In this document: positions 11,227 through 56,279 of the stretch, piece by piece
How the letters are laid out: each line of letters starts with the position of its first letter
Numbering within the stretch: the stretch's first letter is position 1
Notes under the pieces: generated by a model
Seen by the model: the letters and a program-made list of their open reading frames with translations, nothing else
What the model was told of the DNA's origin: nothing
The model's database searches: none
Made by a program: the position numbers and the translations under genes
DNA from: Chlorobiota bacterium
GTDB lineage: Bacteria > Bacteroidota > Ignavibacteria > OLB7
Length of the DNA stretch: 64,000 nt
Reading direction: 5' to 3'
Assembly (NCBI GenBank): GCA_028287785.1
Contig: JAQBOZ010000020.1
Coordinates: 66,738-130,737 of the forward strand

Positions 11227-11230
11227 GATA

Positions 11231-11884: not shown

Positions 11885-11980
11885 CGGACCTTCCTCTATG
11901 TATTATACTTGATTGATTGCTGACGTCGTCTTCCGCTCGCCCATCACCATGCCGGTTGATGATGCACGGGCGGCACGCGA

Positions 11981-13192: not shown

Positions 13193-13310
13193 GCTTGTTT
13201 CGGATTCGTTTCACGGATCTGCCGTATCGCGGGACGGCGAGCGGACCATTCCGTTACGAGCCGCCGGATGCAGTCCCCGCCCCTTCCGGGACATCCCGCC
13301 CGGGGCAGTC

Positions 13311-14670: not shown

Positions 14671-14694
14671 TCCAACAACACGATATCGCTCAGC

Positions 14695-15234: not shown

Positions 15235-15257
15235 CCGGCGGGGAAGGGCGATCCCGT

Positions 15258-15567
15258 GAGTAGTGACTCAGGTTGGGATACGGCTCATGCTGTTCGGGCT
15301 CATCGAGGGCATTCGGCATCTCTCCTTCCAGCCCCATCGGGGCGTACCGGTTGTAGCGATGCCACGTCTTCGATGATCTGAAGCTCCATCGGTGAGTACC
15401 ATTTGGCAAGGATGCGGGGATGGTACGCTCCGATGGAGCTTGAGCGAAAAGATGGGAGCATCGTTGCTACAACCGGCGCGCTCCTACGGAGCTTGAAGAG
15501 TGAAGGAGGGATCGCCGCCCGATGATTGTTCAGCAGATGGAAGGCCGGATTCAACCTGAGTCACTAC
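15258..15567. repeat. About 310-bp palindromic MITE-like element, copy A, with 18-bp terminal inverted repeats
   Basis: TIRs gagtagtgactcaggttg (15258..15275) and caacctgagtcactactc (15550..15567). Internal nested hairpins: ccggttgtagc...gctacaaccgg outer stem and agctccatcgg...ccgatggagct inner stem. A second copy lies at 28232..28530. Confidence 0.6.
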
Positions 15568-15586
15568 TCAATTGGGAGAGAGAGGC

Positions 15587-17647: not shown

Positions 17648-17935
17648 AGTTTCCGCGCTGTGTTCGGGAGCATGTCCCCAGGAGGTTCGATGGATGCGAT
17701 ATGACGGAAGGAGCAGATCCCGGGGTCGGGACGCTCCCGCTTTTTACATCAGAGCAAGTTAAGTTTTCGATGCCACGGGGAAAAGCGGCAGCAGCACATA
17801 ATAGATAACATTGTGAAAGTATGGCGCGAAGAATGCGCCTGGAATCAGCCCGTCCGGGGACAATCGGCTATTTTTGGTATCGGTAGCATCCTGTTTCCGG
17901 AATGGCAGGGATCACATCAGTCAATCGTCAATATC

Positions 17936-19174
17936 ATGAACCAGCGGAAACGTATCGTCATCCTGGGCACAGGGTTCGCCGCCATCAGCCTCGTCAAGAA
18001 GATCGACCTCACCGCTTACGAGGTCATGATCGTCAGCCCGCGGAATCATTTTCTCTTTACTCCACTGCTGCCGAGCACGACCGTGGGAACCGTGGAATTC
18101 AGAAGCATCATCGAGCCGGTTCGGAAGACCCGCAAGGGGATCGAGTACATGCAGGGAAGCTGCCGGTCGGTTGATACGGAGCGGCGGACCATCACCTGCG
18201 AGGGGGTCGATTCCGGGGTCGAGTTCACGATGGAATATCATCATCTGGTGATCGCGGTGGGGGCATGGAACAACACCTTCAACGTCCCCGGCGTCCGGGA
18301 GCATGCCCGGTTCCTGAAGGAGGTGACCGATGCCAGGGTGATCCGCGAGCAGGTGATTTCCTGTCTGGAACGGGCGGATATCCCCGGCATCAGCATGGAG
18401 GAGCGGAACAGGCTGCTCCATTTCGTGGTGGTCGGGGGCGGGCCAACGGGGATCGAGTTCGCGGCGGAACTGCATGATCTGATCGAGGAGGATCTGGGGA
18501 GAAGCTATCCGCATCTGAAGGGGGAGGTGAAGATCAGCCTGTTCGAGGCGATGAACACCATTCTCAACTCGTTCGATGGCAATCTTCGCCGGTACACCGC
18601 GGAGCACTTCAAGCGGCAGGGAATCGAGCTTCGAGTGGGAACGCCGGTGCAGGAGGTGCTGGATGGCGGCCTGAAGCTGAAGAACGGCGAGATGATCCCG
18701 GCCGGGCTGATCGTCTGGTCCACCGGCTACGGGCCGACCGGCCTGGCGCAGTCGCTGCCGTTCGACAAGGACAGGTCGGGACGGATACTGGTGGATGAAT
18801 GCCTGCGCGTCCCGGCGCACCCGGAGATCTACGCGCTTGGCGATTGCTCGAACATCGCGGGAAACGCGGTCCCGCAGACGGCGCAGCTTGCCATGCAGCA
18901 GGGAAAATATCTGGCGAAGGCGCTCAACGCCATCCACGACGGCGAGAGCCCGAAGCCGTTCAAATTCAACAACCTGGGGATGCTGGCCTATGTCGGCGAA
19001 AGCAAGGCCCTTGCCGATATCCCGAAGGCAAACATCCGATGGCGCGGGCTGATCACCTATATCTTCTGGCGCTCCGCTTATTTCACCCGGCTGATCGGCT
19101 TCAAGAACAAGGTGCTGGTGTTGTTCGACTGGATAAAGACGGCGGTGTTCGGACGGGATCTGAGCAAGTTCTGA
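17936..19174 (+). CDS. ndh: Type II NADH:quinone oxidoreductase (NDH-2)
   Basis: Two Rossmann dinucleotide-binding motifs (IVILGTGFAA; VVVGGGPTGIEFAAEL). NDH-2 family length. ATG verified at 17936; the track ORF begins at 17813. Confidence 0.85.
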   Translation: MNQRKRIVILGTGFAAISLVKKIDLTAYEVMIVSPRNHFLFTPLLPSTTVGTVEFRSIIEPVRKTRKGIEYMQGSCRSVDTERRTITCEGVDSGVEFTMEYHHLVIAVGAWNNTFNVPGVREHARFLKEVTDARVIREQVISCLERADIPGISMEERNRLLHFVVVGGGPTGIEFAAELHDLIEEDLGRSYPHLKGEVKISLFEAMNTILNSFDGNLRRYTAEHFKRQGIELRVGTPVQEVLDGGLKLKNGEMIPAGLIVWSTGYGPTGLAQSLPFDKDRSGRILVDECLRVPAHPEIYALGDCSNIAGNAVPQTAQLAMQQGKYLAKALNAIHDGESPKPFKFNNLGMLAYVGESKALADIPKANIRWRGLITYIFWRSAYFTRLIGFKNKVLVLFDWIKTAVFGRDLSKF

Positions 19175-19208
19175 TGCCACTGGTGAAATTGTGGAAGGAT
19201 AGTGGATT

Positions 19209-19724
19209 ATGCTCCCCGTGGGCACCCATGCCAATACTTTCGACACCGTCCATCTCGATGGCCTTCACTCTCATTATTCGGCTTCCGTCGCGGAAATACG
19301 AGCGGCGGCCTATCTCAATGAGGATACCATCACCGTTGGAACCAAGGGGATAGCCTGCTCGCACCTGATTTTTACAGCCCATGATTACGAGAATATTGGA
19401 TTCAATTCAAAGGCTCCCTATCCCGATCCAAATCCAAACAGTGGGTTCATCATTGGCATTGAATACTGGTATTCTCCGATGCTTCATTGTATCGTAAAAG
19501 AAAGGCAATATAACTGGGCCAGTGGAGATAGTATCCAAGGGGGCACAGATCAGAACGCCGATCGCCCGCAAGCTGGAATAAGCCGGGTTGATAAACCAGC
19601 CAGAAGAGACATCCTGACAATTTCAGGGCTCGCAGCCAGTCACCGAATGTGTTTCGCGCGCGATCCACTCACCACGGTTACTTCCCCGGAATTACCATAT
19701 ACGAAACGGGCCGGAGAGATATGA
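19209..19724 (+). CDS. Hypothetical protein in a lower-GC patch; coding status uncertain
   Basis: 171-aa ORF in a region visibly AT-richer than its flanks. No recognisable motif. Confidence 0.25.
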   Translation: MLPVGTHANTFDTVHLDGLHSHYSASVAEIRAAAYLNEDTITVGTKGIACSHLIFTAHDYENIGFNSKAPYPDPNPNSGFIIGIEYWYSPMLHCIVKERQYNWASGDSIQGGTDQNADRPQAGISRVDKPARRDILTISGLAASHRMCFARDPLTTVTSPELPYTKRAGEI

Positions 19725-19765
19725 CTCTCCAGCCTGTCATATTATCGAAGCAATCATCCCCGTAC

Positions 19766-21667
19766 CTACTTCACAACCGAAAATCCTCTCGTCATGACCC
19801 TTCCTTCCACCTGAAGCTGATAGAAATATGCGCCGGCCGGCAGCGTCACGGTGTTGAGCGCTTCTCTGTGCGAACCCGCCGCTCTCTCTCCATCGGTAGC
19901 CAGAATTTCCCGCCCAAGCGCATCCAACAGGCGCAGACGAACGTGGCACTGCCTGGGAAGAGAATATCCTATTGTCGTAAAACCAGTGGCGGGGTTGGGA
20001 TAATTTCCGTCGAGCGTTGCTTCATTGGCAGATGAGGCCTCGGGAACATCGGCCGCCACGCTCTCCAGAACAAGATGCACAACGGTCAACGGAGCAATGG
20101 TATAGGTGAAGTTGGTTACCCCGGCGTCCGATGTCATTCCCGTAACCGCCGGGATCTCCCTGATATCCATCCCACTACCATCAAAAGCAAATGCCCGCCC
20201 GCTCGTGAATTTCCGGTCGGACCTGACCGAAAAGCTCCCGATAATCGGGTCGGTCATGCTTTTGTTGATGGCGACGATATGGAATTTCGATCGATCGGAT
20301 GAGCTGGCCGAGGCATGGACGGAGCTGTTCTGATTGTCCGAGGAAACGGCGCGCGCGTTGATATCGCCGAATGCCGAGAAGTGCCCGTCATAATTCCGGT
20401 AGATCCTGTAGGCCGTCGAAATATAATCCCCCACGGTCCCCCAGTAATTGGACATATAGACGCCATATTTTCCGAAGATTCCCAGGACATCCGCAACGGC
20501 TATCCCGCCCGAGATATCGCTGTCGCCACCGTAATTATATTCCGTAAATGCCAGCTTTGTTCCGGGATAATATCTGGCGATCGATGCGCGCACGGCCGGG
20601 ATCAGCGCAACGGGGCTGAAGTACTGGCCTATCCAGCTATCCTCCCTGAACGTGGAATCCCAGAGCGACCGCGGCGCCTGCATCCGCGCGCGCTGGACGC
20701 CCGGATCGGCCCCGTTCTTGTCGAAAACGATACGGACCAAGCTGCTGTCGTTTCCCTTGCCGCGCGCCTCGGGGTACCAGTGCAGATCCAGCACATCGAG
20801 CAGCCGCATGTTATAGGCCGCCTCCGCCTCCTTCATTTTCGCCAGATATGCGCCGAGGAAATTCCCGTAGCTGCTGTAGGCGCTCCAGTCCGGGGCATCC
20901 TGGCAGTTGAGAAATTCCGCGTAGCCATACGCCACGGGCCCGAACATCTCGGCACCGGCGTCCACTCCCTTGACCGCGCGCGCCAGAGCAACTCCCTTGT
21001 CGATCACCTCCTGAACCCGCGTCTTCGCCGGATGTATTCTGGGATGAGTTGTCGGCCAGAGCGCCGGCTCATTATCGATCGCATAGCCCCGAACGCCCCC
21101 GACGTTCGATTTGCCGAACATGTTCACCAGAGCATTCACCTCCTCATCGGCATAGACGATATTGTCGCCGGTATCCGGCGCAAGCAGAAACGGACTCCCC
21201 TTGGCCGGCTTCACCTCCGCCCATCGCACCGATGGGGCGGTCTGCTCCGGCGATACCACACCGGATTTATCCTTTGCCACATAGCCGGCCGCCGGCAACG
21301 TAATCAGCGAATAACTGGACGTGCTTATCGACTCCTGATGAAAGAGCCTGGGAACGATACCCGGCTTATTCTCAAGGGAGTCGGCAAGCGTATAGGTCAT
21401 GTAATTATCGCTCTGATTATTGAAATCGGTGCCGGCGTGCGATGCGTTGTTCTCCCAGTTGTACCCGGTCCACCTGTTCCCCCCCGCCCTTCGCGCGGCG
21501 ATATTCGCGGCGGGGTCATCCCCCTGGGCATTGGAACCGTAGACATACGGGCTGATGCGGAAGGTATCGAGGCCGGCATCGATCGAAAACCGGACATGGG
21601 TTGGCGACTGCGCCAGCGCGGCCGCGGGGAGCAGCATAACGGCGAGAAGTTGTAGAAGGGGCTTCAT
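19766..21667 (-). CDS. Glycoside hydrolase family 44 (endoglucanase/xyloglucanase-type) with T9SS C-terminal sorting domain
   Basis: Signal peptide. GH44 signatures (RWTGYNWENNASHAG; YAIDNEPALW). C-terminal about 80 aa match the Por-secretion tail (YPNPATGFTTIGYSLP...LRLLDALGREI...LPAGAYFYQLQVEGR). Confidence 0.85.
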   Translation of the reverse strand: MKPLLQLLAVMLLPAAALAQSPTHVRFSIDAGLDTFRISPYVYGSNAQGDDPAANIAARRAGGNRWTGYNWENNASHAGTDFNNQSDNYMTYTLADSLENKPGIVPRLFHQESISTSSYSLITLPAAGYVAKDKSGVVSPEQTAPSVRWAEVKPAKGSPFLLAPDTGDNIVYADEEVNALVNMFGKSNVGGVRGYAIDNEPALWPTTHPRIHPAKTRVQEVIDKGVALARAVKGVDAGAEMFGPVAYGYAEFLNCQDAPDWSAYSSYGNFLGAYLAKMKEAEAAYNMRLLDVLDLHWYPEARGKGNDSSLVRIVFDKNGADPGVQRARMQAPRSLWDSTFREDSWIGQYFSPVALIPAVRASIARYYPGTKLAFTEYNYGGDSDISGGIAVADVLGIFGKYGVYMSNYWGTVGDYISTAYRIYRNYDGHFSAFGDINARAVSSDNQNSSVHASASSSDRSKFHIVAINKSMTDPIIGSFSVRSDRKFTSGRAFAFDGSGMDIREIPAVTGMTSDAGVTNFTYTIAPLTVVHLVLESVAADVPEASSANEATLDGNYPNPATGFTTIGYSLPRQCHVRLRLLDALGREILATDGERAAGSHREALNTVTLPAGAYFYQLQVEGRVMTRGFSVVK

Positions 21668-22230
21668 GGGTTGGACGGATTCTGGTTTGGACCTGAACTG
21701 TGATGGGAATATAGGGGTTTGCGATGATTTCGCACCAGAGGCCCCCGTGGATTCGATATACTTTGGATGGCTCCGATATGCCCGCGTTTACTATGTTTGC
21801 GCCCTGTCGCAAGCTCGACAACCATATTCTCCGCGTCTCATTCCCGCATTTCCCTTGAAGACCACGTATCATACCGGCGGCATCCCGGATATACCGCGCC
21901 ACCGTGCTTGACGATCATTTTTCATTTGTCAACCGGGATACCATCGCCTTCCGTTATCAGAGCCGATTCGATGTGCCATATGGATTATGGATCGACAACA
22001 GCGACAATGTCATTCTTCCCGCCAGCCGCAGACGGAATACAATGTCGATATCCCGATATGATATGAATACCGGTCTGGTCATCAGACAGAGCTGTTTTCT
22101 GGGAAACCCGGACAGCACCGGCATCATCGATCTTTCGTCAACTCCGTAATCGCCGGCCGCATATAAAAGGAAACGCCCGCTCGCGCATCGGCACGAACGG
22201 GCGTTCCTGTATTATATCGACCACCGGGAT

Positions 22231-23526
22231 TTATCCAAGCCCGCAACGCTCGAAGATATAATCAACGTTGCGGATCGATTTCTGAAGATCGCACAGCTCG
22301 TCGATCTCCGCGGGGGGAATGATCGCGGTTACATCGGCATCGCGTTTCAGAACATCGGCGAAGTTCTCGCGGGTGCGCCAGACCTCCATCGCATTCCGCT
22401 GCACCATGCTGTACGCATCTTCGCGGCTGACGCCTTTTTTGGCAAGGGCCAGAAGAATGGTCTGGGAGAAATGGAGCCCGCTGGTGATCTCCAGGTTCTT
22501 TTTCATATTCTCCGGATAGACCAGCAGCTTATCCACCAGCCCCGTCATCTTGTCGAGAATATAATCGAGCGCGATCGTGGAGTCGGGGCAGATCACCCGT
22601 TCCACGGAGGAGTGGCTGATATCCCGCTCGTGCCAGAGCGCCACATTCTCCATGGCGGCAATGGCGTTGACACGGATGATCCGCGCCATGCCGCAGACCC
22701 GCTCGGAGATGATCGGGTTCCGCTTGTGCGGCATCGCGGAGCTTCCCTTCTGCCCGGCGGAGAAATATTCCTCGGCCTCCAGCACTTCCGTCCGCTGGAG
22801 ATGCCGGATCTCGGTGGCGAACTGCTCGAGCGTGGAGGCAACCACGCCAAGCGCCGCCATATACTCCGCGTGCCGGTCGCGCTGGATAACCTGCGTGGTT
22901 ACCGGATCGGCCTTCAGCCCGAGATGCTCGCAGACATATTCCTCCACCTTCGGGCTGAGATGCTCGAACGTCCCGACAGCGCCGGAGATCTGCCCGTAGG
23001 AGATCACGTCGATCGCCCGCCGCATCCGCTCGATGTTCCGCTTCGTCTCCTCGTACCAGAGCGCCAGCTTCAACCCGAAGGTGATCGGCTCCGCGTGAAT
23101 CCCGTGCGAGCGGCCGATCATCATCGTGTACTTGAACTCCACGGCCCGCCTTGCCAGCACATCGCGGAACGCCTCAAGATCCTTCAGCAGAATCTCCCCC
23201 GCCTGCTTCAACTGGACCGCCAGACAGGTATCCAGCACGTCCGATGATGTCATGCCGAGATGGATGTAGCGCGATGGCTCCCCCACATACTCCGCCACGT
23301 TCGTCAGAAACGCGATCACATCGTGCTTGGTGGTCTCCTCGATCTCCAGCACCCTCTTCACATCGAAGTTCCCACGCTCGCGAACGGCCCGCGCGGCCTC
23401 CGCCGGCACATCCCCCAGCTCCGCCTGCGCCTCCACCGCCAGCGTCTCGATCTCCAGCCAGATACGGTACTTGTTCTCATCCTGCCAGATCGCCCCCATC
23501 TCGGGGCGGGTATAACGTTCGATCAT
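22231..23526 (-). CDS. purB: Adenylosuccinate lyase
   Basis: Fumarate-lyase signature GSSAMPHKRNP. Full-length collinearity with PurB. ATG at 23526 (MIERYTRPEM); the track ORF begins further upstream, at 23565. Confidence 0.9.
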   Translation of the reverse strand: MIERYTRPEMGAIWQDENKYRIWLEIETLAVEAQAELGDVPAEAARAVRERGNFDVKRVLEIEETTKHDVIAFLTNVAEYVGEPSRYIHLGMTSSDVLDTCLAVQLKQAGEILLKDLEAFRDVLARRAVEFKYTMMIGRSHGIHAEPITFGLKLALWYEETKRNIERMRRAIDVISYGQISGAVGTFEHLSPKVEEYVCEHLGLKADPVTTQVIQRDRHAEYMAALGVVASTLEQFATEIRHLQRTEVLEAEEYFSAGQKGSSAMPHKRNPIISERVCGMARIIRVNAIAAMENVALWHERDISHSSVERVICPDSTIALDYILDKMTGLVDKLLVYPENMKKNLEITSGLHFSQTILLALAKKGVSREDAYSMVQRNAMEVWRTRENFADVLKRDADVTAIIPPAEIDELCDLQKSIRNVDYIFERCGLG

Positions 23527-23722
23527 TGCGCGAAAACCCGGTTGTGTTTGACGTTCCCGGCGCATCGGCCTTCAGCCGGTCCGCCGGTGCCCATGCAGGG
23601 CGACATTAACTATCCGCACGCCTGTGACGCCCGTTCGACCAACAAATAGCGCCGATCGGAAGCGATTCAAGGGATCTTAATAAAATTCCGCGAGAGGGCT
23701 TGCGAACTTTGAATTCCTTCGT

Positions 23723-24268
23723 ATGTTTGCCGTTGAACTTAATTATTCAAAGCCCTTGAGACTCTCTACCGATCTCGATTCGATCGACCTCCAGATCCTG
23801 AAGGCGCTTCAGGCCAACGGTCGCGCGCAGCTTGGGACAATCGCCGAGGCGGTTGCCCTCTCCGCGCCGGCGGTGGCCGAGCGGCTTCGGAAGCTGGAGG
23901 AGCGGGGGGTCATCCTGGGCTTTACCGCGCGTCTTGCCCCCGCGCCGCTCGCGCTTGATATCACCGCATTCATCATGGTGCGCGTCGATTCATCGACCCA
24001 CTATCCGAAGTTTCTCGCGAAGGCGACCGCCCATGAAGAGGTTATGGAGTGCCACGCCATCACCGGCGATGCCTCTCATATTCTGAAGATCAGGACCCGC
24101 AACACGGGAACCCTGGAGACATTGCTCGGCGAGATTCAGCGCTGGCCGGGGGTGATCGGCACCAGGACCAACCTGGTCCTCTCCACGCACAAGGAATCGT
24201 TCGCGCTCCCCTGTTCGCACCTCGAAGAGATCATCGCCGGGGGAAGAATCGGAAAAAAGAAGGAATAA
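23723..24268 (+). CDS. Lrp/AsnC-family transcriptional regulator
   Basis: N-terminal HTH (LDSIDLQILKALQANGRAQLGTIAEAVALSAPAVAERLRKLEERGVI) and C-terminal RAM domain. Immediately upstream of glnA. Confidence 0.8.
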   Translation: MFAVELNYSKPLRLSTDLDSIDLQILKALQANGRAQLGTIAEAVALSAPAVAERLRKLEERGVILGFTARLAPAPLALDITAFIMVRVDSSTHYPKFLAKATAHEEVMECHAITGDASHILKIRTRNTGTLETLLGEIQRWPGVIGTRTNLVLSTHKESFALPCSHLEEIIAGGRIGKKKE

Positions 24269-24396
24269 TACGCTCGGCGCGCGCGTCGGCCGGCTGAAAA
24301 CCGGCCGGGACCGACGAGATGGGCAAACATACCCATTAGCCGAGAGATAGATTTTTTCAAATCATCAATACACTCAAAGCAGGAGAAGTGGAATCG

Positions 24397-25740
24397 ATGG
24401 CAATCACCAAGGATGATGTCCTGAGAATGGCTCAGGAGCAGAACGTACAGTTCGTGAACCTCCAGTTCACCGATATCGTCGGCACGCTGAAAGCGGTCAC
24501 CATCCCGGTCTGGAAGCTGGAAGATGCGATCGAGCAGAATGTCTGGTTCGATGGCTCGTCGATCGAGGGCTTTACCCGGATCCATGAGAGCGACATGTTC
24601 CTGAAGCTCGATCTTGACACGTTCGCCGTGATCCCCTGGACCAAGGGGGCAAGCTCCGGAACGCGCGCCCGTATCATCTGCGATGTCTACATGCCCGATG
24701 GAACGCCGTTCGAGGGGGACCCGCGCGGCATCCTGAAGCGCCAGCTCGAGCGCGCCAAGGCGCTTGGCTATGTCTTCAACGTCGGGCCGGAGCTGGAGTT
24801 CTTCCTCTTCAAGCGGAACGCCGAGGGAAAGCTGGCGCCGCTTCCGCACGATGAGGCCGGCTACTTCGATCAGACCACCGATGCCGCCACCGAGATCCGC
24901 CAGGAGATGACCTTCGCCCTCCAGGCGTTCGGCATCGATGTCGAGGCGCTTCATCACGAGGTCGCGGTCGGGCAGCACGAGATCGACTTCCGCTACTGCG
25001 ACGCCCTCACCGGCGCCGATGCATCGGTCACGCTCCGCTTCGCCCTCAAGTCGATCGCCGCGCAGCACGGCCTGCACGCCACCTTCATGCCGAAGCCGAT
25101 CGCCGGCATCAACGGCTCCGGCATGCACGTCCATCAGTCGCTCTTCACCACCGACGGGAAGAACCTGATGTTCGACAAGGACGGCCTCTACTCCCTCAGC
25201 GATTTCGCCCAGCATTTCATCGGCGGGCAGCTGCACCATATCAAGGCGATGAACGCCATCCTCAACCCGACGATCAACAGCTACAAGCGGCTCGTTGTGG
25301 GCTACGAGGCGCCGGTGAACGTGGCGTGGGGACAGAAGAACCGCTCGGTGCTGATCCGCGTGCCGCGCTACACGCCGGGACGTGAGAAGGCGGTTCGCGT
25401 GGAGATCCGCTGCCCCGATCCTGCCGCCAACCCCTATCTCGCCTTCGCAGTCCTCCTGGCCGCCGGCCTGGACGGCGTCGAGAAGAAGATCAAGCCGCCG
25501 AAGCCGGTGGAGGACGATATCTTCGAGATGGGACCGGAGGAGATCAAGGAGCGCGGCATCGGCGCGGTGGCGGAGAATCTGAAGGAGGCGCTGGAGGAGC
25601 TGTCGATCAACACGGTCGTCCGCGAGGCCATCGGCGAGTTCACCTTCCGGAAGTTCTACGAGGCGAAGATGAACGAGTGGGACGAGTACCGGATCGCGGT
25701 TTCGCAGTGGGAGCTGGATCGCTACATGGAGATCCACTGA
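24397..25740 (+). CDS. glnA: Glutamine synthetase type I
   Basis: GS-I family throughout (VNLQFTDIVG..., NVGPELEFFLF, HHEVAVGQHEIDF, MPKPIAGINGSGMHVHQSL, KNRSVLIRVP). ATG at 24397 is 10 nt after AGGAGA; the track ORF begins at a GTG at 24388. Confidence 0.9.
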   Translation: MAITKDDVLRMAQEQNVQFVNLQFTDIVGTLKAVTIPVWKLEDAIEQNVWFDGSSIEGFTRIHESDMFLKLDLDTFAVIPWTKGASSGTRARIICDVYMPDGTPFEGDPRGILKRQLERAKALGYVFNVGPELEFFLFKRNAEGKLAPLPHDEAGYFDQTTDAATEIRQEMTFALQAFGIDVEALHHEVAVGQHEIDFRYCDALTGADASVTLRFALKSIAAQHGLHATFMPKPIAGINGSGMHVHQSLFTTDGKNLMFDKDGLYSLSDFAQHFIGGQLHHIKAMNAILNPTINSYKRLVVGYEAPVNVAWGQKNRSVLIRVPRYTPGREKAVRVEIRCPDPAANPYLAFAVLLAAGLDGVEKKIKPPKPVEDDIFEMGPEEIKERGIGAVAENLKEALEELSINTVVREAIGEFTFRKFYEAKMNEWDEYRIAVSQWELDRYMEIH

Positions 25741-25773
25741 TCGGGTAGATATCAATTCCCGTCGCAGATGAAC

Positions 25774-25813
25774 GAAGCCCCCGCGAGCGATGATGTCTCA
25801 CGGGGGCTTTGCG
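25774..25813. terminator. Hairpin terminator after glnA, also 3' of the convergent T9SS gene
   Basis: gaagcccccg-(17-nt loop)-cgggggcttt followed by gcgttat. Confidence 0.45.
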
Positions 25814-25884
25814 TTATCACGATGTTCAGGAGCGCGCTTCGCGATTTCCCGTTTGTCCCGATCACCACACGATGTTCCGGCCGG

Positions 25885-28104
25885 TCAATGCCGCACGATC
25901 ACCCTGCCACTCGCGGTGGCGCTTCCCGCGGTCACCCGGTAGAGATAGATCCCCGCTGGAAGCCCGCCCCCACGCAGCACCACCTCCCCTCCGGCGCCGC
26001 TCCCCTCCATCACCATCCTTCCCGTCGCATCGTACAGCCGTGCATGGACAGCCTCTTCGCCCGCGCGATCGAATCGGATGATGATAGTTCCATCGGCAAA
26101 GCGCGCGTCCCTGATTGTTATGCCGCCGGCGGCAATACCGGCATCATCCACCCCGGCGATGTGCTGAACGATCACCGGAACGTCGCGGGAGAGAGTGCGG
26201 TTGCCGGCCGCATCCAACGCGACGGCGGTCAGATCGTGGAGTCCCGGAAAGGTCGCGCCTGGGTCCCATGTCAGATCGTACGGCGCCGCGTGCATCGGAT
26301 CGCCAAGGTTTGCGCCGTCCAGCCTCACCTGCACGCTCGCGATCCCCACGTTATCGGTGGCGGCCACATGGATGATGATCGGCTTCGACACCTTCCCCCC
26401 GTAGGTCGGGCTGGTGATCTCCACGAGCGGCGGGATGGTGTCGCTGTTCGGCGCGATCAGTATCCGCACCGAATCGGAGAAGCTCCTGTTGCCCGCCTGA
26501 TCTCTTGCAATCGCCCGCAGCGTATGCCATCCCTGCGTCAGGGAGGCGGCATCAGCGTTGACCGCATACGGCTGCCCCATCACCTCTCCGCCGATATCGA
26601 CGCCATCGATCCTGAACTGCACGCCGGATATCGCCACGTTATCGGTGGCGGTCGCCTGAATCCTGAGGATGCTTCCGGTGATGGTCTCCCCATCCACAGG
26701 GGTTGTCATCGCAACGACCGGAGGGATCGTATCCCCCTGCCCGATCGGCGGATCGATGGCGCGGATCGTCATCACCCCCTTTCCCGGCATCATCGCCTCA
26801 AGCGTTCCCCCCTCCGGGATCGTCGTGTCCGGGGCATCCGCTCCAGCCGCGCCGGCGGTCGTATAGGAGATGCCGTAGTTCCCGCCGGGAAGCCCCGCCA
26901 CCTGCAACGTTCCGGTTGTATCGGCCTTTACGACGACGACATCCCGTCGGTCGGCGTTGATGAACGCGACCGGATCGAACGCCGGGTTGGTGGTCTCCAC
27001 ATCGATACGCACCGCGCCCCGATGCACATACCTGAAGTATTGCCGGAGATATCGCGCCGCCTTGCCCATCACCACGTCCGGCCTCCCGGCCGGGGCAGCA
27101 AAGAAGTACGCGGTCCCGTCATCGGTCCCCACGCGGGCCAGCCTCCCCAGTTGCCATGCGGAACTCGACGCCAGCTTGAGATCCTTGTGAAGCTCCTCAT
27201 AGCCGCCCCCCGCATGCTCCAGCATCGCCGGTTCCGCCGAGAAGCTCTCGGCGCGGGAGGCAATCGCCCGGAGTGTGCCGTCGAGCGTGGTCCCGTAGCG
27301 GTGATAGGAGAGCTCTCGAATGTGATCGCCTATCCCCCCGGCGGTTTCGATCATCCCGTTGATGTAATTGAGAGCCGCGGCGGCGTTCGAGGTGGATGGC
27401 GCGATAAAATCCCCCGGCTCGGCGAATCTCCGGGAGCAGGCGAGGATGGCATCGGCAAGCTGCGCCGGGCTCCAGCCGGCCAGATCGGGCTCCAGACAGA
27501 CCTCGATGGCGTCGGGAAGAAGGCCATACCGATGCTGGATATGCGACGTGACGGCGGCCATGAACTCCGCGTACTCCTCAGGGTTGGCGGCATGACGGAA
27601 GGGGGACGCGGAGGAATCGGTGTAGGCCAGATTGATGGAAAGCTCCTCCCCCTCGCTCTTCAGGCGATCGCGCAGCGGCATCACCAGCCTGTCGAAGACA
27701 TTATCGATCTCGGAGAACTGAAAGCGGGAGGAATCGATCATCGTGGGATCGTTGTTGTCGTTGACAACCTCGTAACGCTTTCTGCTCCATTCCGCAGCGG
27801 AGATCGCGCCGGATCGATAGAGCGACCAGTAGTCCACAGGGTTTTCGATGCCGCTCCGCGCTTCAACCCGGAGCCGGTTGATCCCCATGACGGCCGCGTC
27901 CTGGAACAGCTCCCCCGCATAGTCGAAGAACCGAAGCGTATCCTCCCCCGCGTGCGCGGTCGCCTCCCAGCCGTTGATCGTCTGGAACGTGCGGGCGGGG
28001 TTCAATGTGATCACCGCGCCGGCCGGGGTCTGCCCCGGCGATTGAACGCAGGAGACGGAGCCGAGGAGGAGAACAATCAGGAGATGGAGAGAAGATCGAT
28101 TCAT
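25885..28104 (-). CDS. Secreted multidomain protein: putative glycosidase-like catalytic domain, three bacterial Ig-like repeats, T9SS C-terminal sorting domain
   Basis: ATG at 28104 (MNRSSLHLLIVLLLGSVSCVQS signal peptide); the track ORF begins at 28302. Three about 95-aa repeats beginning TIPPVVAMTTP / TIPPLVEITSP. C-terminal Por tail (LYDATGRMV...LPAGIYLYRVTAGS...). Confidence 0.7.
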   Translation of the reverse strand: MNRSSLHLLIVLLLGSVSCVQSPGQTPAGAVITLNPARTFQTINGWEATAHAGEDTLRFFDYAGELFQDAAVMGINRLRVEARSGIENPVDYWSLYRSGAISAAEWSRKRYEVVNDNNDPTMIDSSRFQFSEIDNVFDRLVMPLRDRLKSEGEELSINLAYTDSSASPFRHAANPEEYAEFMAAVTSHIQHRYGLLPDAIEVCLEPDLAGWSPAQLADAILACSRRFAEPGDFIAPSTSNAAAALNYINGMIETAGGIGDHIRELSYHRYGTTLDGTLRAIASRAESFSAEPAMLEHAGGGYEELHKDLKLASSSAWQLGRLARVGTDDGTAYFFAAPAGRPDVVMGKAARYLRQYFRYVHRGAVRIDVETTNPAFDPVAFINADRRDVVVVKADTTGTLQVAGLPGGNYGISYTTAGAAGADAPDTTIPEGGTLEAMMPGKGVMTIRAIDPPIGQGDTIPPVVAMTTPVDGETITGSILRIQATATDNVAISGVQFRIDGVDIGGEVMGQPYAVNADAASLTQGWHTLRAIARDQAGNRSFSDSVRILIAPNSDTIPPLVEITSPTYGGKVSKPIIIHVAATDNVGIASVQVRLDGANLGDPMHAAPYDLTWDPGATFPGLHDLTAVALDAAGNRTLSRDVPVIVQHIAGVDDAGIAAGGITIRDARFADGTIIIRFDRAGEEAVHARLYDATGRMVMEGSGAGGEVVLRGGGLPAGIYLYRVTAGSATASGRVIVRH

Positions 28105-28231
28105 GGCACCTGGAATTGATGATCGTCGCCGTTTCCCAAGGAGGAAAGGGCGTTCGATAGTGGAGGAACGTAACCGTGCCGGAAACGGATGGTACGAAAT
28201 CGAAGCATTGTGACAAGCGGAGCGCACTGGC

Positions 28232-28530
28232 AGGTAGTGGCTCAATTTGAATCCAGCCCTCGGGTTGACGGCGCAATGATCCATCGACAATCCTCTGATC
28301 ACTCTTCAAGCTCCGTCAGGAGCGTGCCGGTTGTAGCAACGATATATCCGTTTCACACTCAAGCTCCAGAGGAGCGGACTATTCTGCCGGCATGCAAGGA
28401 TGGTTCGCTCCTCTGGAGCCTGGATTATGGAAGGCGTGGTGATACTACAACCGGCACGCCCCGATGGGGCTGGCAGATGCCGTATATGACTCCGGGCATC
28501 ATCCACAGCATCTCAACCTGAGTCACGACC
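28232..28530. repeat. About 300-bp palindromic MITE-like element, copy B
   Basis: Right TIR caacctgagtcacgaccc (28513..28530) and degenerate left TIR aggtagtggctcaatttg. Same nested-hairpin core as copy A (ccggttgtagc...ctacaaccgg; ctccagaggagcg...cgctcctctggag) with compensatory stem changes. Sits in the 5' region of gene 25885..28104. Confidence 0.55.
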
Positions 28531-28986
28531 CGACGGCAACAAAAAAGGCGCTCCGGTGAGGGAGCGCCCTGGTGATTACGATCACCGGAGGGGTCGCGCT
28601 TGTGATCGCTCAACCATGGGGGCCGACATCATTCATGTATCGCCGCTGAATCAGGCTCGGGGTTACCCCTGGAAGCCTCCCCGGTCACCGTCGATCCATC
28701 GATGCCGGCCGGAGATGGTGAGCTTGCGCGGAGAAACCCTGGGGGGTAGGGCTCCATCGGGGAGGCCACGAGCACAGATGATCCATCAGCGCTACAATCC
28801 ATCAGTCGTTTCAGGGGGGCTGAACAAACGGCCTTGTATTCCTAACCAGCGCGCCCACCGAAACCTTACATCGCATCGCAACGCCCACAGCCCGCGCAAC
28901 ACAACGAACGAGGGGGCACCCGCATTCCGCGCGAGCGCCCCCTCCGAATAATCCCAATCGCCAAAGAATGAACCGACGCAAAACGA

Positions 28987-31422
28987 TCAGTGAAGAATCG
29001 TCGCCGCGCCGCTCGTCACGGTCCCATCATCCAGATGGAGGCGCCATGTATAGCGTCCGGCCGGAAGCCCCGCGCTGGTAACGATAAACGATGACGGCCC
29101 AGCCGGAAGATTCCCCTCATGGATCAGCCGGACCGGAGCGCCAAGGATATCGAACAGCTCCAGCCTGCTCCGATGCTGCTCCGAGGAGAGGGTAAGATCG
29201 ATCCGCGCGCTGCCGGAGAAGGGATTAGGCCGGAGAGCGGCATTCCGCAACGCGCCGGATGGACGCGCTGGGGAGATGTCGACCGATACAAGGGGAGCGC
29301 CGTCGCTGACGCTGAAATCATCCATGCCGGCCTCCACCAGGTTCTGCTCGAAGAGATCGGACGCCACAATGCAGAAAAGCGTCTGCCTGGATGGAGTCAC
29401 ATAATCCTTTACCCTGATCCCGACCGGGCGCCACGTGCGCGGCTCGGACTGGGCGATATGCCGCACCAGATGCCAGTTCTTGCCGTTATCATCCGAAAGA
29501 AGCAGATCGAGCGAATCGTTCGCCGGCACGCCGGGCCTGAGATCGTTCGAGTACCATATCCAGCAGTTGATATACGGATCGCCGTAGGTGCTCAGGTCCA
29601 TCGCCGGAGATGTCAGCGAGGTCCTGCCGCTGTCCACATCGTTGGAGCCGGCATCGACGGAGTTGCTGATGCCGGTAATGAACGCCTGATCGCCCCATCC
29701 GGGAGTGTTGTCGGCCTTCGGCTGAATGTCCACCGATGCATCGTACGGGTTGGGCACTTCCACCGGAACGCCCCGCTCCCATGTCCCGCTGCTGGCATTG
29801 TCGGTCGGCGCGGCAAGCATCCATCCAAGATCCAGCTCGGCATCGTCGTAATAGCCGCGCGCAAGCTCGATCTTGTCGGTCTGGTTCTCCGCCTTCACGG
29901 TCACCAGTTTTGGGATATATCCCCATGCTCCCACGTAAATGCGATAGGTGCTGTCCTGCGAGAGCTTCAGAAGCTGCGGATTGCTGAACCCGCGAATCCC
30001 GCCATCCGCCTGATCGTCGATAACCCGGTAGGAGAATGTCTCCATCGACTCGCCGGTGATCGAATCGACGGGGTTCAGGAGAAAGGAGACCTTCGGGATG
30101 ACGTTGACGTAGATATCGACCTCCGAATCGGTCGTCCCCACGATCAGCGAGCCGACCCCTGCCTTCTCGGGATCATAGACCCTGACCGAGTACGGCAGCG
30201 TGTCGGCCGCCCCCTCATAGCTGTAGCGTCCGGCGGAGTCGGCGGTGATCGTCTTGCCGACCTTTTCAAGGACGATCGGGGCAAACGGAACCGGCTCATG
30301 GGTGATGGCGTCGCGGACAACGCCATGCACCATGCCGCGCCTGGCGCCGTTGTAGGTAAAGACATACAGCCCGGTCTGCATATCGCTGGCGATGATCTTT
30401 CCGTCGGGGAAGTAGGGATAGGTTTCCCAGTTCCCCGAGTACTCGCTCCCCTGACGCGGGGACATGTCGAAGTAGCCCAGCTCCACGGGGTCGCGGGGAT
30501 TGGAGATATCGACGATCCGCGTCCCGGCCGTATACCATGCGATATAGGCCAGGTTCCCCTTGATATGAACGTTGTGGATGATCTCCCCCGGCACCGGCGT
30601 CCAGTCCGCCACCTTGCTGACGCTGTTGATATCGCGCACATCCCAGACCTTCAGGGTCTTCGGGGTCGAGCCGATCTCATCGGTCGTCAGGGCGTAGCTG
30701 CCGTCGGTGGTGATATCCACATTGTGCGTGCCGCCGGTGTTGCCGGCCGGGCCAAAGACGGTAACCAGGTGCGGATGCGTCCTGTCCTTCCCCAGCGCCA
30801 CCACATCCACCCTTCCCTTGTTGATCGCGGCCACCCAGAGCGTATCATTCCTGATATAGGCATCGTGCGCGTAATCGCCATCGAACTTCCCAACCATCAC
30901 CGGCTTCGTGGGGTCGGGCTCCAGATCGAAGATGATCGTCCCCTGATTTGCTCCGGCGTCCACCTGGCTTCCGTTCACGTAGAGGTAGTGCCCTTCCTGA
31001 TCGACCGTATGGGCCCGGCTGAAGACGCTGCTGTCCAGCCGCAGCTCGGCCGCGGAGGCGGGAAGATGGGAGAGATCGATGATCTGAAGCCCCCGCCCGT
31101 TTTCGCTCACCACATAGGCGTAGGTGCCGTAGGTTTTCATCTCCCGCCACTGGCTGTAGGGGGCCGGGATAAAGGCCACCTGCTTGACCGGCTGCTCGGT
31201 GATATCGATGATGTGCGTGCCGGTATATCCCCCCAGAAGCGCGTATTCACGGCCATCGGGGGCTGTATAGCCGGTGAGCGCCGAATACTTCCACTGGCCG
31301 GAAGCCGTGCCGGGATCGAGCTTGCCGAAGAACGTCGTGTTGTAGGCCTTCGGGGTCTGCCCCAAGGCCGTGACGACGGCCAGCAGAGCGCAGACTGCAA
31401 ACGACGTAAAAATTCTGTGCAT
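28987..31422 (-). CDS. LVIVD-repeat beta-propeller protein with carboxypeptidase-regulatory-like domain and T9SS C-terminal sorting domain
   Basis: ATG at 31422 (MHRIFTSFAVCALLAVVTALGQ); the track ORF begins at 31686. LVIVD-type repeats (YAYVVSENGRGLQIIDLS, LAYIAWYTAGTRIVDISNP, etc.). C-terminal Por tail (LRPNPFSGSARIDL...LPAGRYTWRLHLDDG). Confidence 0.7.
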   Translation of the reverse strand: MHRIFTSFAVCALLAVVTALGQTPKAYNTTFFGKLDPGTASGQWKYSALTGYTAPDGREYALLGGYTGTHIIDITEQPVKQVAFIPAPYSQWREMKTYGTYAYVVSENGRGLQIIDLSHLPASAAELRLDSSVFSRAHTVDQEGHYLYVNGSQVDAGANQGTIIFDLEPDPTKPVMVGKFDGDYAHDAYIRNDTLWVAAINKGRVDVVALGKDRTHPHLVTVFGPAGNTGGTHNVDITTDGSYALTTDEIGSTPKTLKVWDVRDINSVSKVADWTPVPGEIIHNVHIKGNLAYIAWYTAGTRIVDISNPRDPVELGYFDMSPRQGSEYSGNWETYPYFPDGKIIASDMQTGLYVFTYNGARRGMVHGVVRDAITHEPVPFAPIVLEKVGKTITADSAGRYSYEGAADTLPYSVRVYDPEKAGVGSLIVGTTDSEVDIYVNVIPKVSFLLNPVDSITGESMETFSYRVIDDQADGGIRGFSNPQLLKLSQDSTYRIYVGAWGYIPKLVTVKAENQTDKIELARGYYDDAELDLGWMLAAPTDNASSGTWERGVPVEVPNPYDASVDIQPKADNTPGWGDQAFITGISNSVDAGSNDVDSGRTSLTSPAMDLSTYGDPYINCWIWYSNDLRPGVPANDSLDLLLSDDNGKNWHLVRHIAQSEPRTWRPVGIRVKDYVTPSRQTLFCIVASDLFEQNLVEAGMDDFSVSDGAPLVSVDISPARPSGALRNAALRPNPFSGSARIDLTLSSEQHRSRLELFDILGAPVRLIHEGNLPAGPSSFIVTSAGLPAGRYTWRLHLDDGTVTSGAATILH

Positions 31423-31753
31423 ACGACGAAGTGAGTTAGAGGGAAGAATACCTGATGCTCCCGGTGGGCGCCGGAGCTGCGAACGGGCGGCGGCAATCAT
31501 AGCGACTGGCCGCATCTCCTGCAAGGAACAGTCCGGCACGGCCGGAATGCGTTGTGAAGAATTCGTGACGTTGGGGGGACGACCGGGGCCGGTCGCTATT
31601 TTCGCGAGGCCCGGCATGGCCCCAACTTCCCCGGAGGTTGGGGCGCTCCACGGCCGGGGATGACGGCAACGATCGCCCGGAGCCATATCGGGTTATATTC
31701 CGATGACTGGCGCGGGCCAATGTATATGAACACCTATCGGCGGAAAATCTCTC

Positions 31754-32428
31754 ATGACATCACGAGCGGCAACGCTTCAACGAATGCTCGACGCAAAGAT
31801 CATCGCGGTGATCCGGTTCGATTCGGCCGACCAGGCGGCCGGGATTATCGAGATCATCGCCTCGGCCGGCATCACGACCGTGGAGATCACCCTGACCACC
31901 GATGGCGCGATCGGGCTGATAGAGCGCCTGGCCGGCCGGGATGATCTTCTGATCGGCGCGGGAACTGTTCTCAAGAAATCGCGGGCCAGGGGGGTGTTCG
32001 ACGCGGGCGCTCTCTTCTATGCCAGCCCGGTCTTCGATCCCCGCCTCGTCGCCACGGCGCATCAGGCGGGATGCGTGGCGATGCCGGGGGCGCTTACCCC
32101 CACCGAGGTGATGGCGGCATGGCGCGGCGGCGCCGATATCGTCAAGCTCTTTCCGATGCCGGCCGAGGGAGCACGGTATCTCTCGGCGATTCGCGCTCCC
32201 CTCCCCGATATCCCGATCGCCCCGTCCGGCGGCGTCTCGCTGGAGACCGCCGAGGCTCTTCTCCGCGCCGGCGCCGCAGCCCTCAACGTGGGCACATGGC
32301 TGACGCACGAGAAGGATGGGACGATCAGCGATGAGAGGATCATCAGCAATCGCGCGGAATCGCTGGCGGCGCTTGTTAAAAAAGTGTCCGGGGAGATCGC
32401 AAGGCAGCAGATCCGCCCGACGACATGA
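31754..32428 (+). CDS. eda: KDPG/KHG aldolase (2-dehydro-3-deoxyphosphogluconate aldolase)
   Basis: IIAVIR, GITTVEITL, GAGTV, FYASP, PGALTPTE and VKLFP motifs in canonical order; about 224 aa. Confidence 0.85.
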   Translation: MTSRAATLQRMLDAKIIAVIRFDSADQAAGIIEIIASAGITTVEITLTTDGAIGLIERLAGRDDLLIGAGTVLKKSRARGVFDAGALFYASPVFDPRLVATAHQAGCVAMPGALTPTEVMAAWRGGADIVKLFPMPAEGARYLSAIRAPLPDIPIAPSGGVSLETAEALLRAGAAALNVGTWLTHEKDGTISDERIISNRAESLAALVKKVSGEIARQQIRPTT

Positions 32429-32463
32429 AAAAGCCCGGCCGCGCGGGAGCGGACGGGCTTTTC
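32428..32463. terminator. Bidirectional terminator between eda and the convergent peroxiredoxin gene
   Basis: aaaaagcccg-(loop)-cgggcttttcg. A-tract and T-tract on opposite sides. Confidence 0.5.
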
Positions 32464-32494
32464 GCATTCATCGGGACGGCGACGGAATCGGGGA

Positions 32495-33139
32495 TCAGTT
32501 TTCCAGATTCGGCTGCGGCGTCAGGCGGAGATACGGGCGAACCACGCTGAACCCTTTCGGGAACTTGGCGGCCAGCTCCTCCGGGTCCTGAATCCCCGGA
32601 AGGATCACGCAATCATCCCCGTTCTTCCAGTTGGCCGGCGTCGCCACGCTGTGATGCTCGGTAAGCTGCAACGAGTCGATCACGCGGAGGATCTCGTCGA
32701 AGTTGCGGCCGGTCGATGCCGGATAGGTAAGCGTCAGACGGAGCTTCTTCTTTGGATCGATGATAAACACCGAGCGGACGGTGGCCGTGGCGCTTGCCTC
32801 CGGGTGGATCATGTCGTACAGCCCCGAGACCGAGCGGTCGGCATCGGCGAGGATCGGATAGTTGAGATTCACTCCCTGCGTCTCCTCGATATCGCCGACC
32901 CAGCGGTTGTGCGAGTCCACGTTATCCACGCTCAGGGCGATCGCCTTCACGTTCCGCCTGTCGAACTCCGATTTCAGGCGCGCCACGGTTCCAAGCTCGG
33001 TGGTGCAGACCGGCGTGAAGTCGGCGGGATGCGAGAAGAGAATCACCCAGCTGTCTCCCGCCCAGTCGTGGAAATTGATCTCTCCCTCGGTCGACTGCTG
33101 CGTGAAATTGGGAACGGTATCCCCGAGTCGAATTGCCAT
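32495..33139 (-). CDS. 1-Cys peroxiredoxin (Prx6-like)
   Basis: MAIRLGDTVPNF..., active-site FTPVCTTE, about 214 aa. ATG at 33139. The track ORF 32495..34192 is an artefactual upstream extension. Confidence 0.9.
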   Translation of the reverse strand: MAIRLGDTVPNFTQQSTEGEINFHDWAGDSWVILFSHPADFTPVCTTELGTVARLKSEFDRRNVKAIALSVDNVDSHNRWVGDIEETQGVNLNYPILADADRSVSGLYDMIHPEASATATVRSVFIIDPKKKLRLTLTYPASTGRNFDEILRVIDSLQLTEHHSVATPANWKNGDDCVILPGIQDPEELAAKFPKGFSVVRPYLRLTPQPNLEN

Positions 33140-39709: not shown

Positions 39710-39715
39710 GTAGGG

Positions 39716-55337: not shown

Positions 55338-56279
55338 ATGGAAAAGGAAAACTACACACCGCGCACCCTTCAGGAAGCAATCGTCCACTACTCCAACCCG
55401 GATAATGCACTCGCATTTATGATCCGTCTTCGGTGGCCGGACGGTATCACGTGCCCCCGTTGCGGATCGTGCGAGCATAGCTTTTTGACGACGCGCCGCG
55501 TGTGGAAGTGCAAGGGATGTAAGAAGCAGTTCTCCGTTAAGGTCGGCACCATCTTCGAGGATTCTCCGCTCGGTCTGAACACGTGGCTTGCCGCCGTGTG
55601 GCTCATCACGAACGCCAAGAACGGCGTAAGCTCATGCGAGATTGCGCGGGCACTTGGCATCACACAAAAGAGCGCGTGGTTCGTCTTGCATCGTATCCGC
55701 ATCGCGATGGAAACGGGCACCATTGAGAAGCTGAAGGGCCAGGTTGAAGCCGATGAAACGTACATCGGCGGCAAGTACGGGAACATGCACAGGATCAAGC
55801 GCGCTCAAAAGGAGCAGGGACGCGGCGCTGTCGGGAAGGTTATCGTGATGGGGTTCTTGGAGCGTGACGGCGCGGTACGGGCAAAGGTCGTGAAGAGCAT
55901 CAAGAAGACCATCTTGCACGCGGAAGTCCGGCTGAACGTCGAAGCTGGTACGGAGTTGCTTACCGACAACCTTGCGAGCTACGAGGGCTTGGAGCCGGAA
56001 TACACGCACGAGAGCGTCAACCACGCCGCTGAACAGTATGTACGGGGCCATGTGCATACCAACGGCATAGAGAACTTCTGGAGCTTGCTCAAGCGGACGC
56101 TGAAGGGCACGTATGCGCAGGTTGAGTCCCATCACCTTCAGGCATATCTTGACGAACAGATATTGCGGTTCAATCTTCGCAAGGGAACGGATAAGAGCCG
56201 GTTCTTGCGCGTGGTTGGTGGAGTGTCGGGAAAGAGACTAACTTACAAGCAGTTGATTGGTCGGGGTGGTAACATCTAG
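55338..56279 (+). CDS. IS1595-family transposase (N-terminal zinc-ribbon plus ISXO2-like DDE domain)
   Basis: CPRCGS...CKGCKKQFSVKVGTIFEDS zinc ribbon. DETYIGGK and downstream DDE-domain residues. ATG at 55338; the track ORF begins at a TTG at 55332. Confidence 0.85.
   Translation: MEKENYTPRTLQEAIVHYSNPDNALAFMIRLRWPDGITCPRCGSCEHSFLTTRRVWKCKGCKKQFSVKVGTIFEDSPLGLNTWLAAVWLITNAKNGVSSCEIARALGITQKSAWFVLHRIRIAMETGTIEKLKGQVEADETYIGGKYGNMHRIKRAQKEQGRGAVGKVIVMGFLERDGAVRAKVVKSIKKTILHAEVRLNVEAGTELLTDNLASYEGLEPEYTHESVNHAAEQYVRGHVHTNGIENFWSLLKRTLKGTYAQVESHHLQAYLDEQILRFNLRKGTDKSRFLRVVGGVSGKRLTYKQLIGRGGNI

Follow-up and report, generated by a model that had tools for sequence, protein, structure and literature searches.

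A probable old MITE copy upstream of a GH30-like glycosidase gene in a Kapabacteria-related genome

Genes and predicted signals around the element

The window, that is, the whole stretch of DNA that was analysed (64 kb), carries a palindromic element of 298 nt, termed copy B, in the gap between two minus-strand genes that encode an LVIVD-repeat / choice-of-anchor-B protein and a GH30-like glycosidase. Following the minus strand from the upstream to the downstream gene, this part of the window contains the features below, L026 being the genome of the closest relative.

28987..31422, minus strand: gene of the LVIVD-repeat / choice-of-anchor-B protein, the upstream neighbour (domain search)
28545..28570, minus strand: terminator-like hairpin AGGGCGCTCCCTCACCGGAGCGCCTT, followed by TTTTGT (consensus prediction; conserved in L026)
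28531..28538, no strand assigned: putative right 8-bp target-site duplication of copy B, CGACGGCA (no difference from the single L026 copy)
28233..28530, plus strand: copy B, probable member of MITE family 1 with degenerate ends (alignment with copy A; empty site in L026; independent contig ends inside)
28513..28530, plus strand: right terminal inverted repeat of copy B, TCAACCTGAGTCACGACC, with one mismatch, G at 28527 (consensus comparison)
28233..28250, plus strand: left terminal inverted repeat of copy B, GGTAGTGGCTCAATTTGA, with three mismatches to the consensus (consensus comparison)
28225..28232, no strand assigned: putative left 8-bp target-site duplication of copy B, CACTGGCA, diverged (L026 comparison; 5/8 match to the right copy)
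28189..28216, minus strand: promoter-like site TTGTCA-16-TACCAT of the GH30-like gene (consensus prediction; block almost identical in L026)
25885..28104, minus strand: gene of the GH30-like glycosidase with Big_7 Ig domains and a T9SS type A sorting domain, JWQ98_1999 (domain search; homologues)

The GH30-like protein is 100% identical to JWQ98_1999 [Chlorobi bacterium], encoded on a 173-kb contig; its homologues are annotated as GH30, and it scores 29.6 bits against TIGR04183, for which the cutoff is 23. The T9SS sorting domain is also present in the neighbouring GH44 and in a Big_7 protein. Secretion by T9SS is plausible because of the kinship with Kapabacteria seen in the matches of ValRS, PurB and the GH30-like protein, the first two having their best matches in Candidatus Kapaibacterium / Kapabacteria MAGs. 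The original prediction, which had been made from the sequence of the window, spoke of two T9SS cargo genes; this holds for the GH30-like gene by virtue of TIGR04183, but no T9SS signal was detected in the LVIVD / choice-of-anchor-B protein.

In minus-strand order, the LVIVD / choice-of-anchor-B gene ends at its stop (28987) and is followed by a terminator-like hairpin (28944-28910), approximately 340 nt conserved with L026, a hairpin with a T-run (28570-28545), copy B (28530-28233), the promoter-like site (28216-28189), and the start of the GH30-like gene (28104). Copy B lies 13 nt beyond the second terminator-like hairpin and 16 nt ahead of the promoter-like site, where the promoter and terminator calls are consensus matches only. 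The element had been placed 128 bp upstream of the start codon of gene 25885..28104 and downstream of gene 28987..31422; the distance is correct, and the stop of the latter gene does lie upstream of the element on the minus strand. The stretch between the two terminator-like hairpins (28571-28909, ~340 nt, minus strand) is 81% conserved with L026 and ends with a strong hairpin and T-run, and it could be a small RNA gene or a small-peptide gene.

By prediction, copy B is situated outside both neighbouring transcripts, with the hairpin before it and the promoter after it both kept in L026, and neither a promoter nor a terminator was called within the element. The proposed role of the element as a terminator or attenuator is unlikely because it appears to lie outside both transcripts and does not itself contain a T-run. 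The idea of a promoter-modifying insertion is narrowed to a possible effect from upstream of the promoter, the insertion replacing DNA from approximately 16 nt upstream of the -35 hexamer. The effect of copy B on its host would be nil or would consist only of altered DNA upstream of that hexamer, and the default reading is that of selfish DNA tolerated at harmless sites.

Two inverted copies and their palindromic body

The other copy in the window, copy A, is located between two convergent genes and has better preserved ends.

15258..15569, minus strand: copy A, the same probable MITE, inverted relative to copy B, between convergent LigT-like and HdrD-like genes (alignment; independent contig ends at 15289/15538)
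15257..15275, plus strand: terminal inverted repeat of copy A on the LigT side, perfect over 19 nt, TGAGTAGTGACTCAGGTTG (repeat search)
15552..15570, minus strand: terminal inverted repeat of copy A on the HdrD side, perfect over 19 nt (repeat search)

With refined ends, copy A is 312 nt and copy B 298 nt long (15258-15569, minus strand, and 28233-28530), and the two align end to end, as reverse complements only, with an identity of 71% over the aligned columns. In a window-wide repeat search, 15260-15528 was tied to the copy B region by four collinear inverted matches. The longest exact runs shared by the copies are ≤26 nt, and the 16-18-mers common to both were found at no other site in the window; the expectation from shuffles is 0.02-0.2. 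The full-length alignment and the terminal inverted repeats bear out the view that the locus holds a second copy of a MITE-like palindromic element. The terminal inverted repeat of the family has the consensus G-R-GTAGTGACTCAGGTTG (16-18 bp), and the right terminus of copy B, CAACCTGAGTCACGACC, which ends at 28530, matches the terminal inverted repeat of copy A, as had been noticed in the original prediction. The ORFs of the two copies differ, being broken by indels, and none of them is conserved; ten ORFs inside the copies returned no record on exact look-up in a protein collection.

The arms of copy B had been described as roughly the reverse complement of the arms of copy A, and the element itself as close to a long palindrome. 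The former does not hold, as copy A is inverted in its entirety: a profile of both copies gives 321-336 bits when the orientation matches and 80-97 bits on the opposite strand. The latter is overstated, since the central ~175 nt are approximately 70% self-complementary and copy A is simply inverted relative to copy B. The element is an imperfect nested palindrome with a definable orientation and not a pair of swapped arms. Its body in copy B is built from the following parts.

28319..28336, plus strand: 5' arm of the outer stem, GGAGCGTGCCGGTTGTAG, preceded by a small hairpin GCTCC-GTCA-GGAGC (13/15 pairs invariant between copies A and B)
28360..28422, plus strand: inner hairpin with arms 28360-28385 and 28397-28422 (five compensatory pairs relative to copy A)
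28445..28462, plus strand: 3' arm of the outer stem, CTACAACCGGCACGCCCC, followed by a small hairpin GCCCC-GAT-GGGGC (inverted-repeat search; A/B structure comparison)

The core of the outer stem is formed in copy B by CCGGTTGTAGC (28327-28337) and CTACAACCGG (28445-28454), within an 18-nt inverted repeat (28319-28336 / 28445-28462) of 94% complementarity, and the CCGGTTGTAGC/GCTACAACCGG stem is invariant between the two copies. The arms of the inner hairpin are 26 nt long and 85% complementary; they are themselves small palindromes (GCTCC-NNN-GGAGC), the loops of which are the compensated positions. The outer stem, the inner hairpin, and the right terminus were all present where they had been predicted. 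When the minimum-energy structure of copy B is mapped onto copy A, 88% of the cells are still paired. Seven compensatory pairs separate the copies, five of them in the inner hairpin, in agreement with the predicted compensatory substitutions of the inner stem; with the partners slid by 1-3 columns, 0-1 such pairs are obtained, and the shuffle control for these pairs is weak (22/500), two sequences only being available to it. The 9-mer GCAAGGATG occupies the apical loop of copy B (28393-28401) and is also read on the plus strand in copy A near 15406-15414, although copy A is inverted, which suggests that the apical loop has been flipped relative to its arms.

The alignment of the two copies and the folding of both strands had been proposed as checks; besides the 71% identity, they showed that both strands fold much better than shuffles (z = -8.1 and -7.6), which is expected of any DNA palindrome. 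Such a very stable predicted fold (z ~ -8), together with the seven compensatory pairs versus 0-1 in the slid controls and the position upstream of a T9SS substrate gene, would be consistent with a structured RNA gene or a cis-regulatory RNA (an attenuator or 5'-UTR element) of the T9SS cargo genes. This reading is very improbable. Both strands fold equally well, no promoter or terminator is predicted inside the element, and the contexts and orientations of the copies are not equivalent, with copy B in a terminator/promoter gap and copy A between two 3' ends. The element is absent from the orthologous site of L026 though the promoter block is kept there, and it has terminal inverted repeats and copies elsewhere. 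An Rfam scan of the window gave no match at the gathering score; the best match in the region was to mir-515 with 31.7 bits versus a gathering score of 68, and the sub-threshold matches are to generic hairpin (microRNA) models. A tRNA-like reading of the terminus was also considered, and no tRNA was found. The structure fits selection for hairpin formation, and repair or recombination inside the palindrome fits equally well, so the structure alone does not indicate an RNA function. Caution is advised that the hairpins upstream of the T9SS glycosidase gene should not be taken for a regulatory RNA.

Empty site, landing sites and further copies

The closest relative, L026 (GCA_039917235.1), has a PurB 99% identical to that of the window and the same LVIVD to GH30 gene pair, and its intergenic region aligns on both flanks of the copy B site without the element. 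This comparison of the orthologous region, which had been recommended, yielded a site that is free of copy B and holds a different MITE. The site reads TTTTTTGT-(169 nt)-TGCCGTCG-CGCTCCGC in L026 and TTTTTTGT-TGCCGTCG-(element)-TGCCAGTG-CGCTCCGC in the window; therefore, the common ancestor had a single TGCCGTCG. This 8-mer flanks copy B on both sides, with the promoter-side copy mutated (5/8 match); the CACTGGCA-element-CGACGGCA arrangement of the window corresponds to a lone CGACGGCA in L026. For copy A, no target duplication was found between its flanks (GATCCCGT / AATTGGGA) despite the perfect 19-nt terminal repeats.

The 169 nt peculiar to L026 include a member of a second MITE-like family, located 8 nt from the copy B position. 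As a different MITE family has entered the same gap in the closest relative, the terminator-promoter gap looks like a permissive or preferred landing site, and the presence of two unrelated MITE families within 8 nt in sister genomes represents a small natural experiment on insertion-site preference. A bolder version holds that the CCGGTTGTAGC stem and the compensated inner hairpin are under selection, that the element, like the unrelated family 2, would be directed to terminator-promoter gaps, and that its hairpin would serve secreted-glycosidase genes as an insulator or as a structure at RNA ends; we regard this as unlikely. To our knowledge, a terminator-proximal targeting mode has not been described for IS1595-type MITEs. 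Copy A fills the 352-nt gap of its convergent genes, 23 nt past the LigT-like stop and 17 nt past the HdrD-like stop. No canonical terminator was predicted at copy A, and if transcribed, it would give both mRNAs a large 3' hairpin.

A third copy is found in the same MAG on another contig (226 kb), where it is annotated as a hypothetical protein of 56 aa (MDB5034434.1 / JWQ98_1675). It was the sole short protein matched by phmmer with a 110-aa ORF through copy B among 1.84 billion representative proteins. In tblastn, JWQ98_1675 aligns with positions 15403-15314 in copy A (E = 1e-11) and with 28381-28515 in copy B (E = 1e-10), and it is a mosaic of A-like (CYNRYAPMGL) and B-like (QMPYMTPGIIHSI) stretches; JWQ98_1675 is a translation of the element.

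An independent assembly of the same sample (Logan, k=31, run SRR13312994) covers the window at 4695-15289, 15538-25098, 25069-28285, and 28497-32701, and all four element boundaries coincide with contig ends. At copy A, each contig extends into the element for exactly 30 nt counted from the G of GTAGTG, over 15260-15289 at one end and 15538-15567 at the other, while at copy B, the contigs stop 30 nt in from B-specific substitutions (A at 28255 and G at 28527). In a de Bruijn graph, contigs break in this way because the next 31-mer is common to another copy with a different flank. Presence/absence polymorphism is disfavoured because it would break the contigs at the flank instead, and the 19-nt inverted repeats of copy A and the A/B runs of ≤26 nt are too short to be the cause. 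The assembly behaviour, rather than any direct sighting, points to more copies in the sample with ends near-identical to those of A and of B. The element accounts for the fragmentation of assemblies of this genome at these points.

Searches beyond this MAG gave no further copies. The DNA of relatives retrieved through PurB, ValRS, and GH30 homologues (~170 kb) contained none, the copy A site not being part of it, and none was found in scans of JGI metagenomes and GTDB representative genomes, in which exact patterns were required. A metagenome scan for CTACAACCGG-N50-80-CAACCTGAGTCAC gave one AT-rich coding match, which is a chance match. The genome-collection scan for CCGGTTGTAGC-N95-125-CTACAACCGG led to a 123-nt family of Chthoniobacterales (Verrucomicrobia), set aside as belonging to another phylum and having only the 11-mer forced by the search in common. 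That palindromic repeat, CCGGTTGTAGCCACGGCCCTGTGGGCCGT...ACGGCCCACAGGGCCGTGGCTACAACCGG (L001-L022; CAWGMG01, DASYIS01, and DASXPA01), occurs in many copies per genome, its motif being present at 11 loci in CAWGMG01 and seven in DASYIS01, most in the 123-nt form. Its GTAG and hairpin, arranged as an inverted doublet, make it REPIN-like, and it is not related to the window element beyond the 11-mer.

The presence of only two copies in the 64-kb window and of none in the public-collection scans would suit a duplicated segment without mobility or a palindrome that arose by chance and belongs to no family. Such an explanation is scarcely credible and is already contradicted by the evidence, namely, the third copy on another contig, the contig breaks 30 nt inside all four ends, the copies without shared flanks, the presence/absence difference relative to L026, and a related terminus in three other genomes. 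The family is a true repeat family and not a two-copy accident. The copies have a size of 298 and 312 nt, below the ~500 bp expected of MITEs, with no conserved ORF, terminal inverted repeats (19 nt and perfect in A; 16-18 nt in B), unrelated sites (A, B, and JWQ98_1675), and an empty site in L026, features that are shared with MITEs. Copy B is, with good confidence, an old, mutated copy of a non-autonomous transposable element (MITE) of approximately 300 nt.

Several other repeats and insertions were observed. The second MITE-like family (~135-150 nt, terminal inverted repeat CAGACTGTTCAAGGACG) has two mutually inverted copies in the window, 39560-39712 and 63368-63501, with 88-97% identity, and its third copy is the one in L026 (3250-3378) at 8 nt from the copy B position. 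A third, GC-rich family of 57 nt, CGCGGGGC...GCGCCCCTCCGGGGC, is located at 39478-39534, 46777-46833, and 47588-47644, one member abutting a family-2 element. Near-identical 33-nt hairpins, GTCGGGGCGGGTTT(G/A)AAACCCGCCCCGAC, lie inverted on either side of a DUF488 gene (50650-50682 and 51232-51264). In L035/L036, a gene fragment of the IS256 family (Transposase_mut) is found at 17238-18008 between the GH44 and NDH2 genes; the corresponding interval of the window has no such fragment, only a 171-aa ORF of unknown function.

Candidate transposase parent and likeness to known systems

The window also encodes a transposase that could serve the element.

55338..56279, plus strand: IS1595-family DDE transposase gene, candidate trans-acting mobiliser (Zn-ribbon and DDE_Tnp_IS1595)

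The GTAGTG-N-CTCAG terminus recurs as GGGTAGTGTCTCAGTGTGA in two other Kapabacteria loci, with 13/16 bases. In L027, an 87-nt element (3084-3170; also in L028) with GGGTAGTGTCTCAGTGTGA ends is flanked by CCCGGGGG / CACGGGGG, an 8-bp duplication with 7/8 matches. This element contains a perfect internal hairpin, and a solo end with GGGTAGTGTCTCAGTGTGA is present in L034 at ~12565-12582. In an empty-site comparison of the L027 mini-element with the window, the regions were not alignable. A TA duplication, as in IS630/mariner-like elements (GTAG...CTAC), was also considered; copies A and B by themselves would allow it, yet 8 bp agrees better with the flanks in L027 and with the comparison to L026.

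No full-length insertion sequence with inverted repeats at its two ends was found. When viral contigs were scanned for the 19-nt terminus, the result was one chance match and L039 (IMGVR_UViG_3300002307_000062), where GGTAGTGACTCAGGTTGAAATCCGGCC agrees with copy A at 27/28 positions and lies 150 nt upstream of an IS1595-family ORF of 335 aa with Zn_ribbon_IS1595 and DDE_Tnp_IS1595 domains. The terminus is oriented towards the transposase gene with no MITE-sized partner repeat after it, and it is most simply understood as the left end of an insertion sequence of the IS1595 family. Its right inverted repeat was not found on the contig, which stops 1.3 kb past the transposase gene; a candidate at 3964 was rejected with only a 12/22 match and 5/8 in the flanks.

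The window transposase (55338-56279) is recognised by Pfam (5.9e-40 and 3.7e-14) and by NCBIfam NF033547 (189 bits), and it is 52% identical to the L039 protein; no matching inverted repeats were found beside its gene. The terminus is absent from 40 other IS1595 homologues, no convincing repeats surround 24 viral homologues, and a plasmid tblastn with the L039 transposase gave only relatives at ≤42% identity. Upstream of the window gene (55280-55337) and of many IS1595-family genes on the viral contigs L040-L066 (IMG/VR), a promoter-like block GG.AA.TATATACTTGAC(T/A)CACC is found 40-50 nt before the ATG, the latter genes having no detectable terminal inverted repeats within 700 nt. The transposase gene of the window belongs to an island of low third-position GC (55338-58393) together with an RloB-like gene and an AAA_21 (AbiEii-type) ATPase gene, and these two look like an acquired defence-type pair.

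Duplications of 8 bp are usual in the IS1595 family, which is also described with a zinc finger at the N-terminus, and the related Merlin elements have 5'-GG ends (PMC8101967); ISApl4 likewise has direct repeats of 8 bp (PMC12561309). The chances that an IS1595-family transposase is the parent or mobiliser of the element appear evenly balanced. In this mechanism, a DDE transposase supplied in trans would bind both terminal repeats and excise or copy the element, and insertion at a staggered cut would duplicate approximately 8 bp of the target. The palindrome may have originated when one end of an insertion sequence was duplicated head to head, and either repair inside it or selection for the ability to form hairpins would maintain its symmetry.

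These results add a MITE family, probably dependent on IS1595, to Kapabacteria, a lineage known almost solely from metagenome bins. The repeat family is newly described, the kind of element is ordinary, and the current understanding of mobile elements is unchanged.

ERIC/IRU of enterobacteria and the Correia elements (NEMIS) of Neisseria are gene-less intergenic repeats of 100-300 nt that form long hairpins on either strand, lie often near 3' ends or promoters, and may occur in one genome but be missing from a close relative; those of the Correia type produce a TA duplication and are known to contain promoter sites as well as sites for IHF and RNase III. The present element resembles them as a palindromic intergenic repeat lying between genes near 3' ends and promoters with presence/absence variation, but it is not known to share sequence similarity with them and its copy number here is apparently low.

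REP/REPIN elements consist of GTAG immediately 5' of an imperfect palindrome of 20-40 nt, arranged as inverted doublets. A REP/REPIN-like element, in which single-stranded hairpins flanked by GTAG are moved by RAYT (a Y1 transposase of the IS200/IS605 type) without target duplication, would explain the occurrence of GTAG at each terminus as well as within the invariant CCGGTTGTAGC stem, the nested arrangement of several small GCTCC-NNN-GGAGC hairpins with pairing kept by compensatory changes, and copy A, which lacks a target duplication and lies between convergent genes as REPs often do; the REPIN-like 123-nt family of Chthoniobacterales contains the same 11-mer. This origin is nevertheless quite unlikely, for the order is reversed, with hairpins that precede GTAG instead of following it, and the element is ~300 nt long with terminal inverted repeats of 16-19 nt and a low documented copy number. 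No Y1 transposase or RAYT was found among the ~45 window ORFs scanned, the terminus being linked to a DDE transposase gene in L039 instead. Furthermore, the related L027 element is surrounded by an 8-bp duplication, and the Chthoniobacterales family belongs to another phylum with only the search-forced 11-mer in common.

The reading as a MITE, possibly served by an IS1595-family transposase, has a described counterpart in Haloquadratum walsbyi, in which the ISHwa6-derived MITE is listed with 165 bp, inverted repeats of 25, and direct repeats of 8 bp (PMC3852290, Table 4). The present element differs from such IS1595-derived MITEs in that no autonomous partner with inverted repeats at its two ends was found, copy A is without a duplication, the long nested palindrome of the body has no kinship with known insertion-sequence interiors, and the host is an uncultured member of Kapabacteria. 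It is similar to them in being small and without an ORF, in having terminal inverted repeats that start with GG/GA and a putative target duplication of ~8 bp (7/8 in the L027 relative and 5/8 at copy B), and in sharing its genome with an IS1595-family transposase gene, the same terminus being found beside such a gene in L039.
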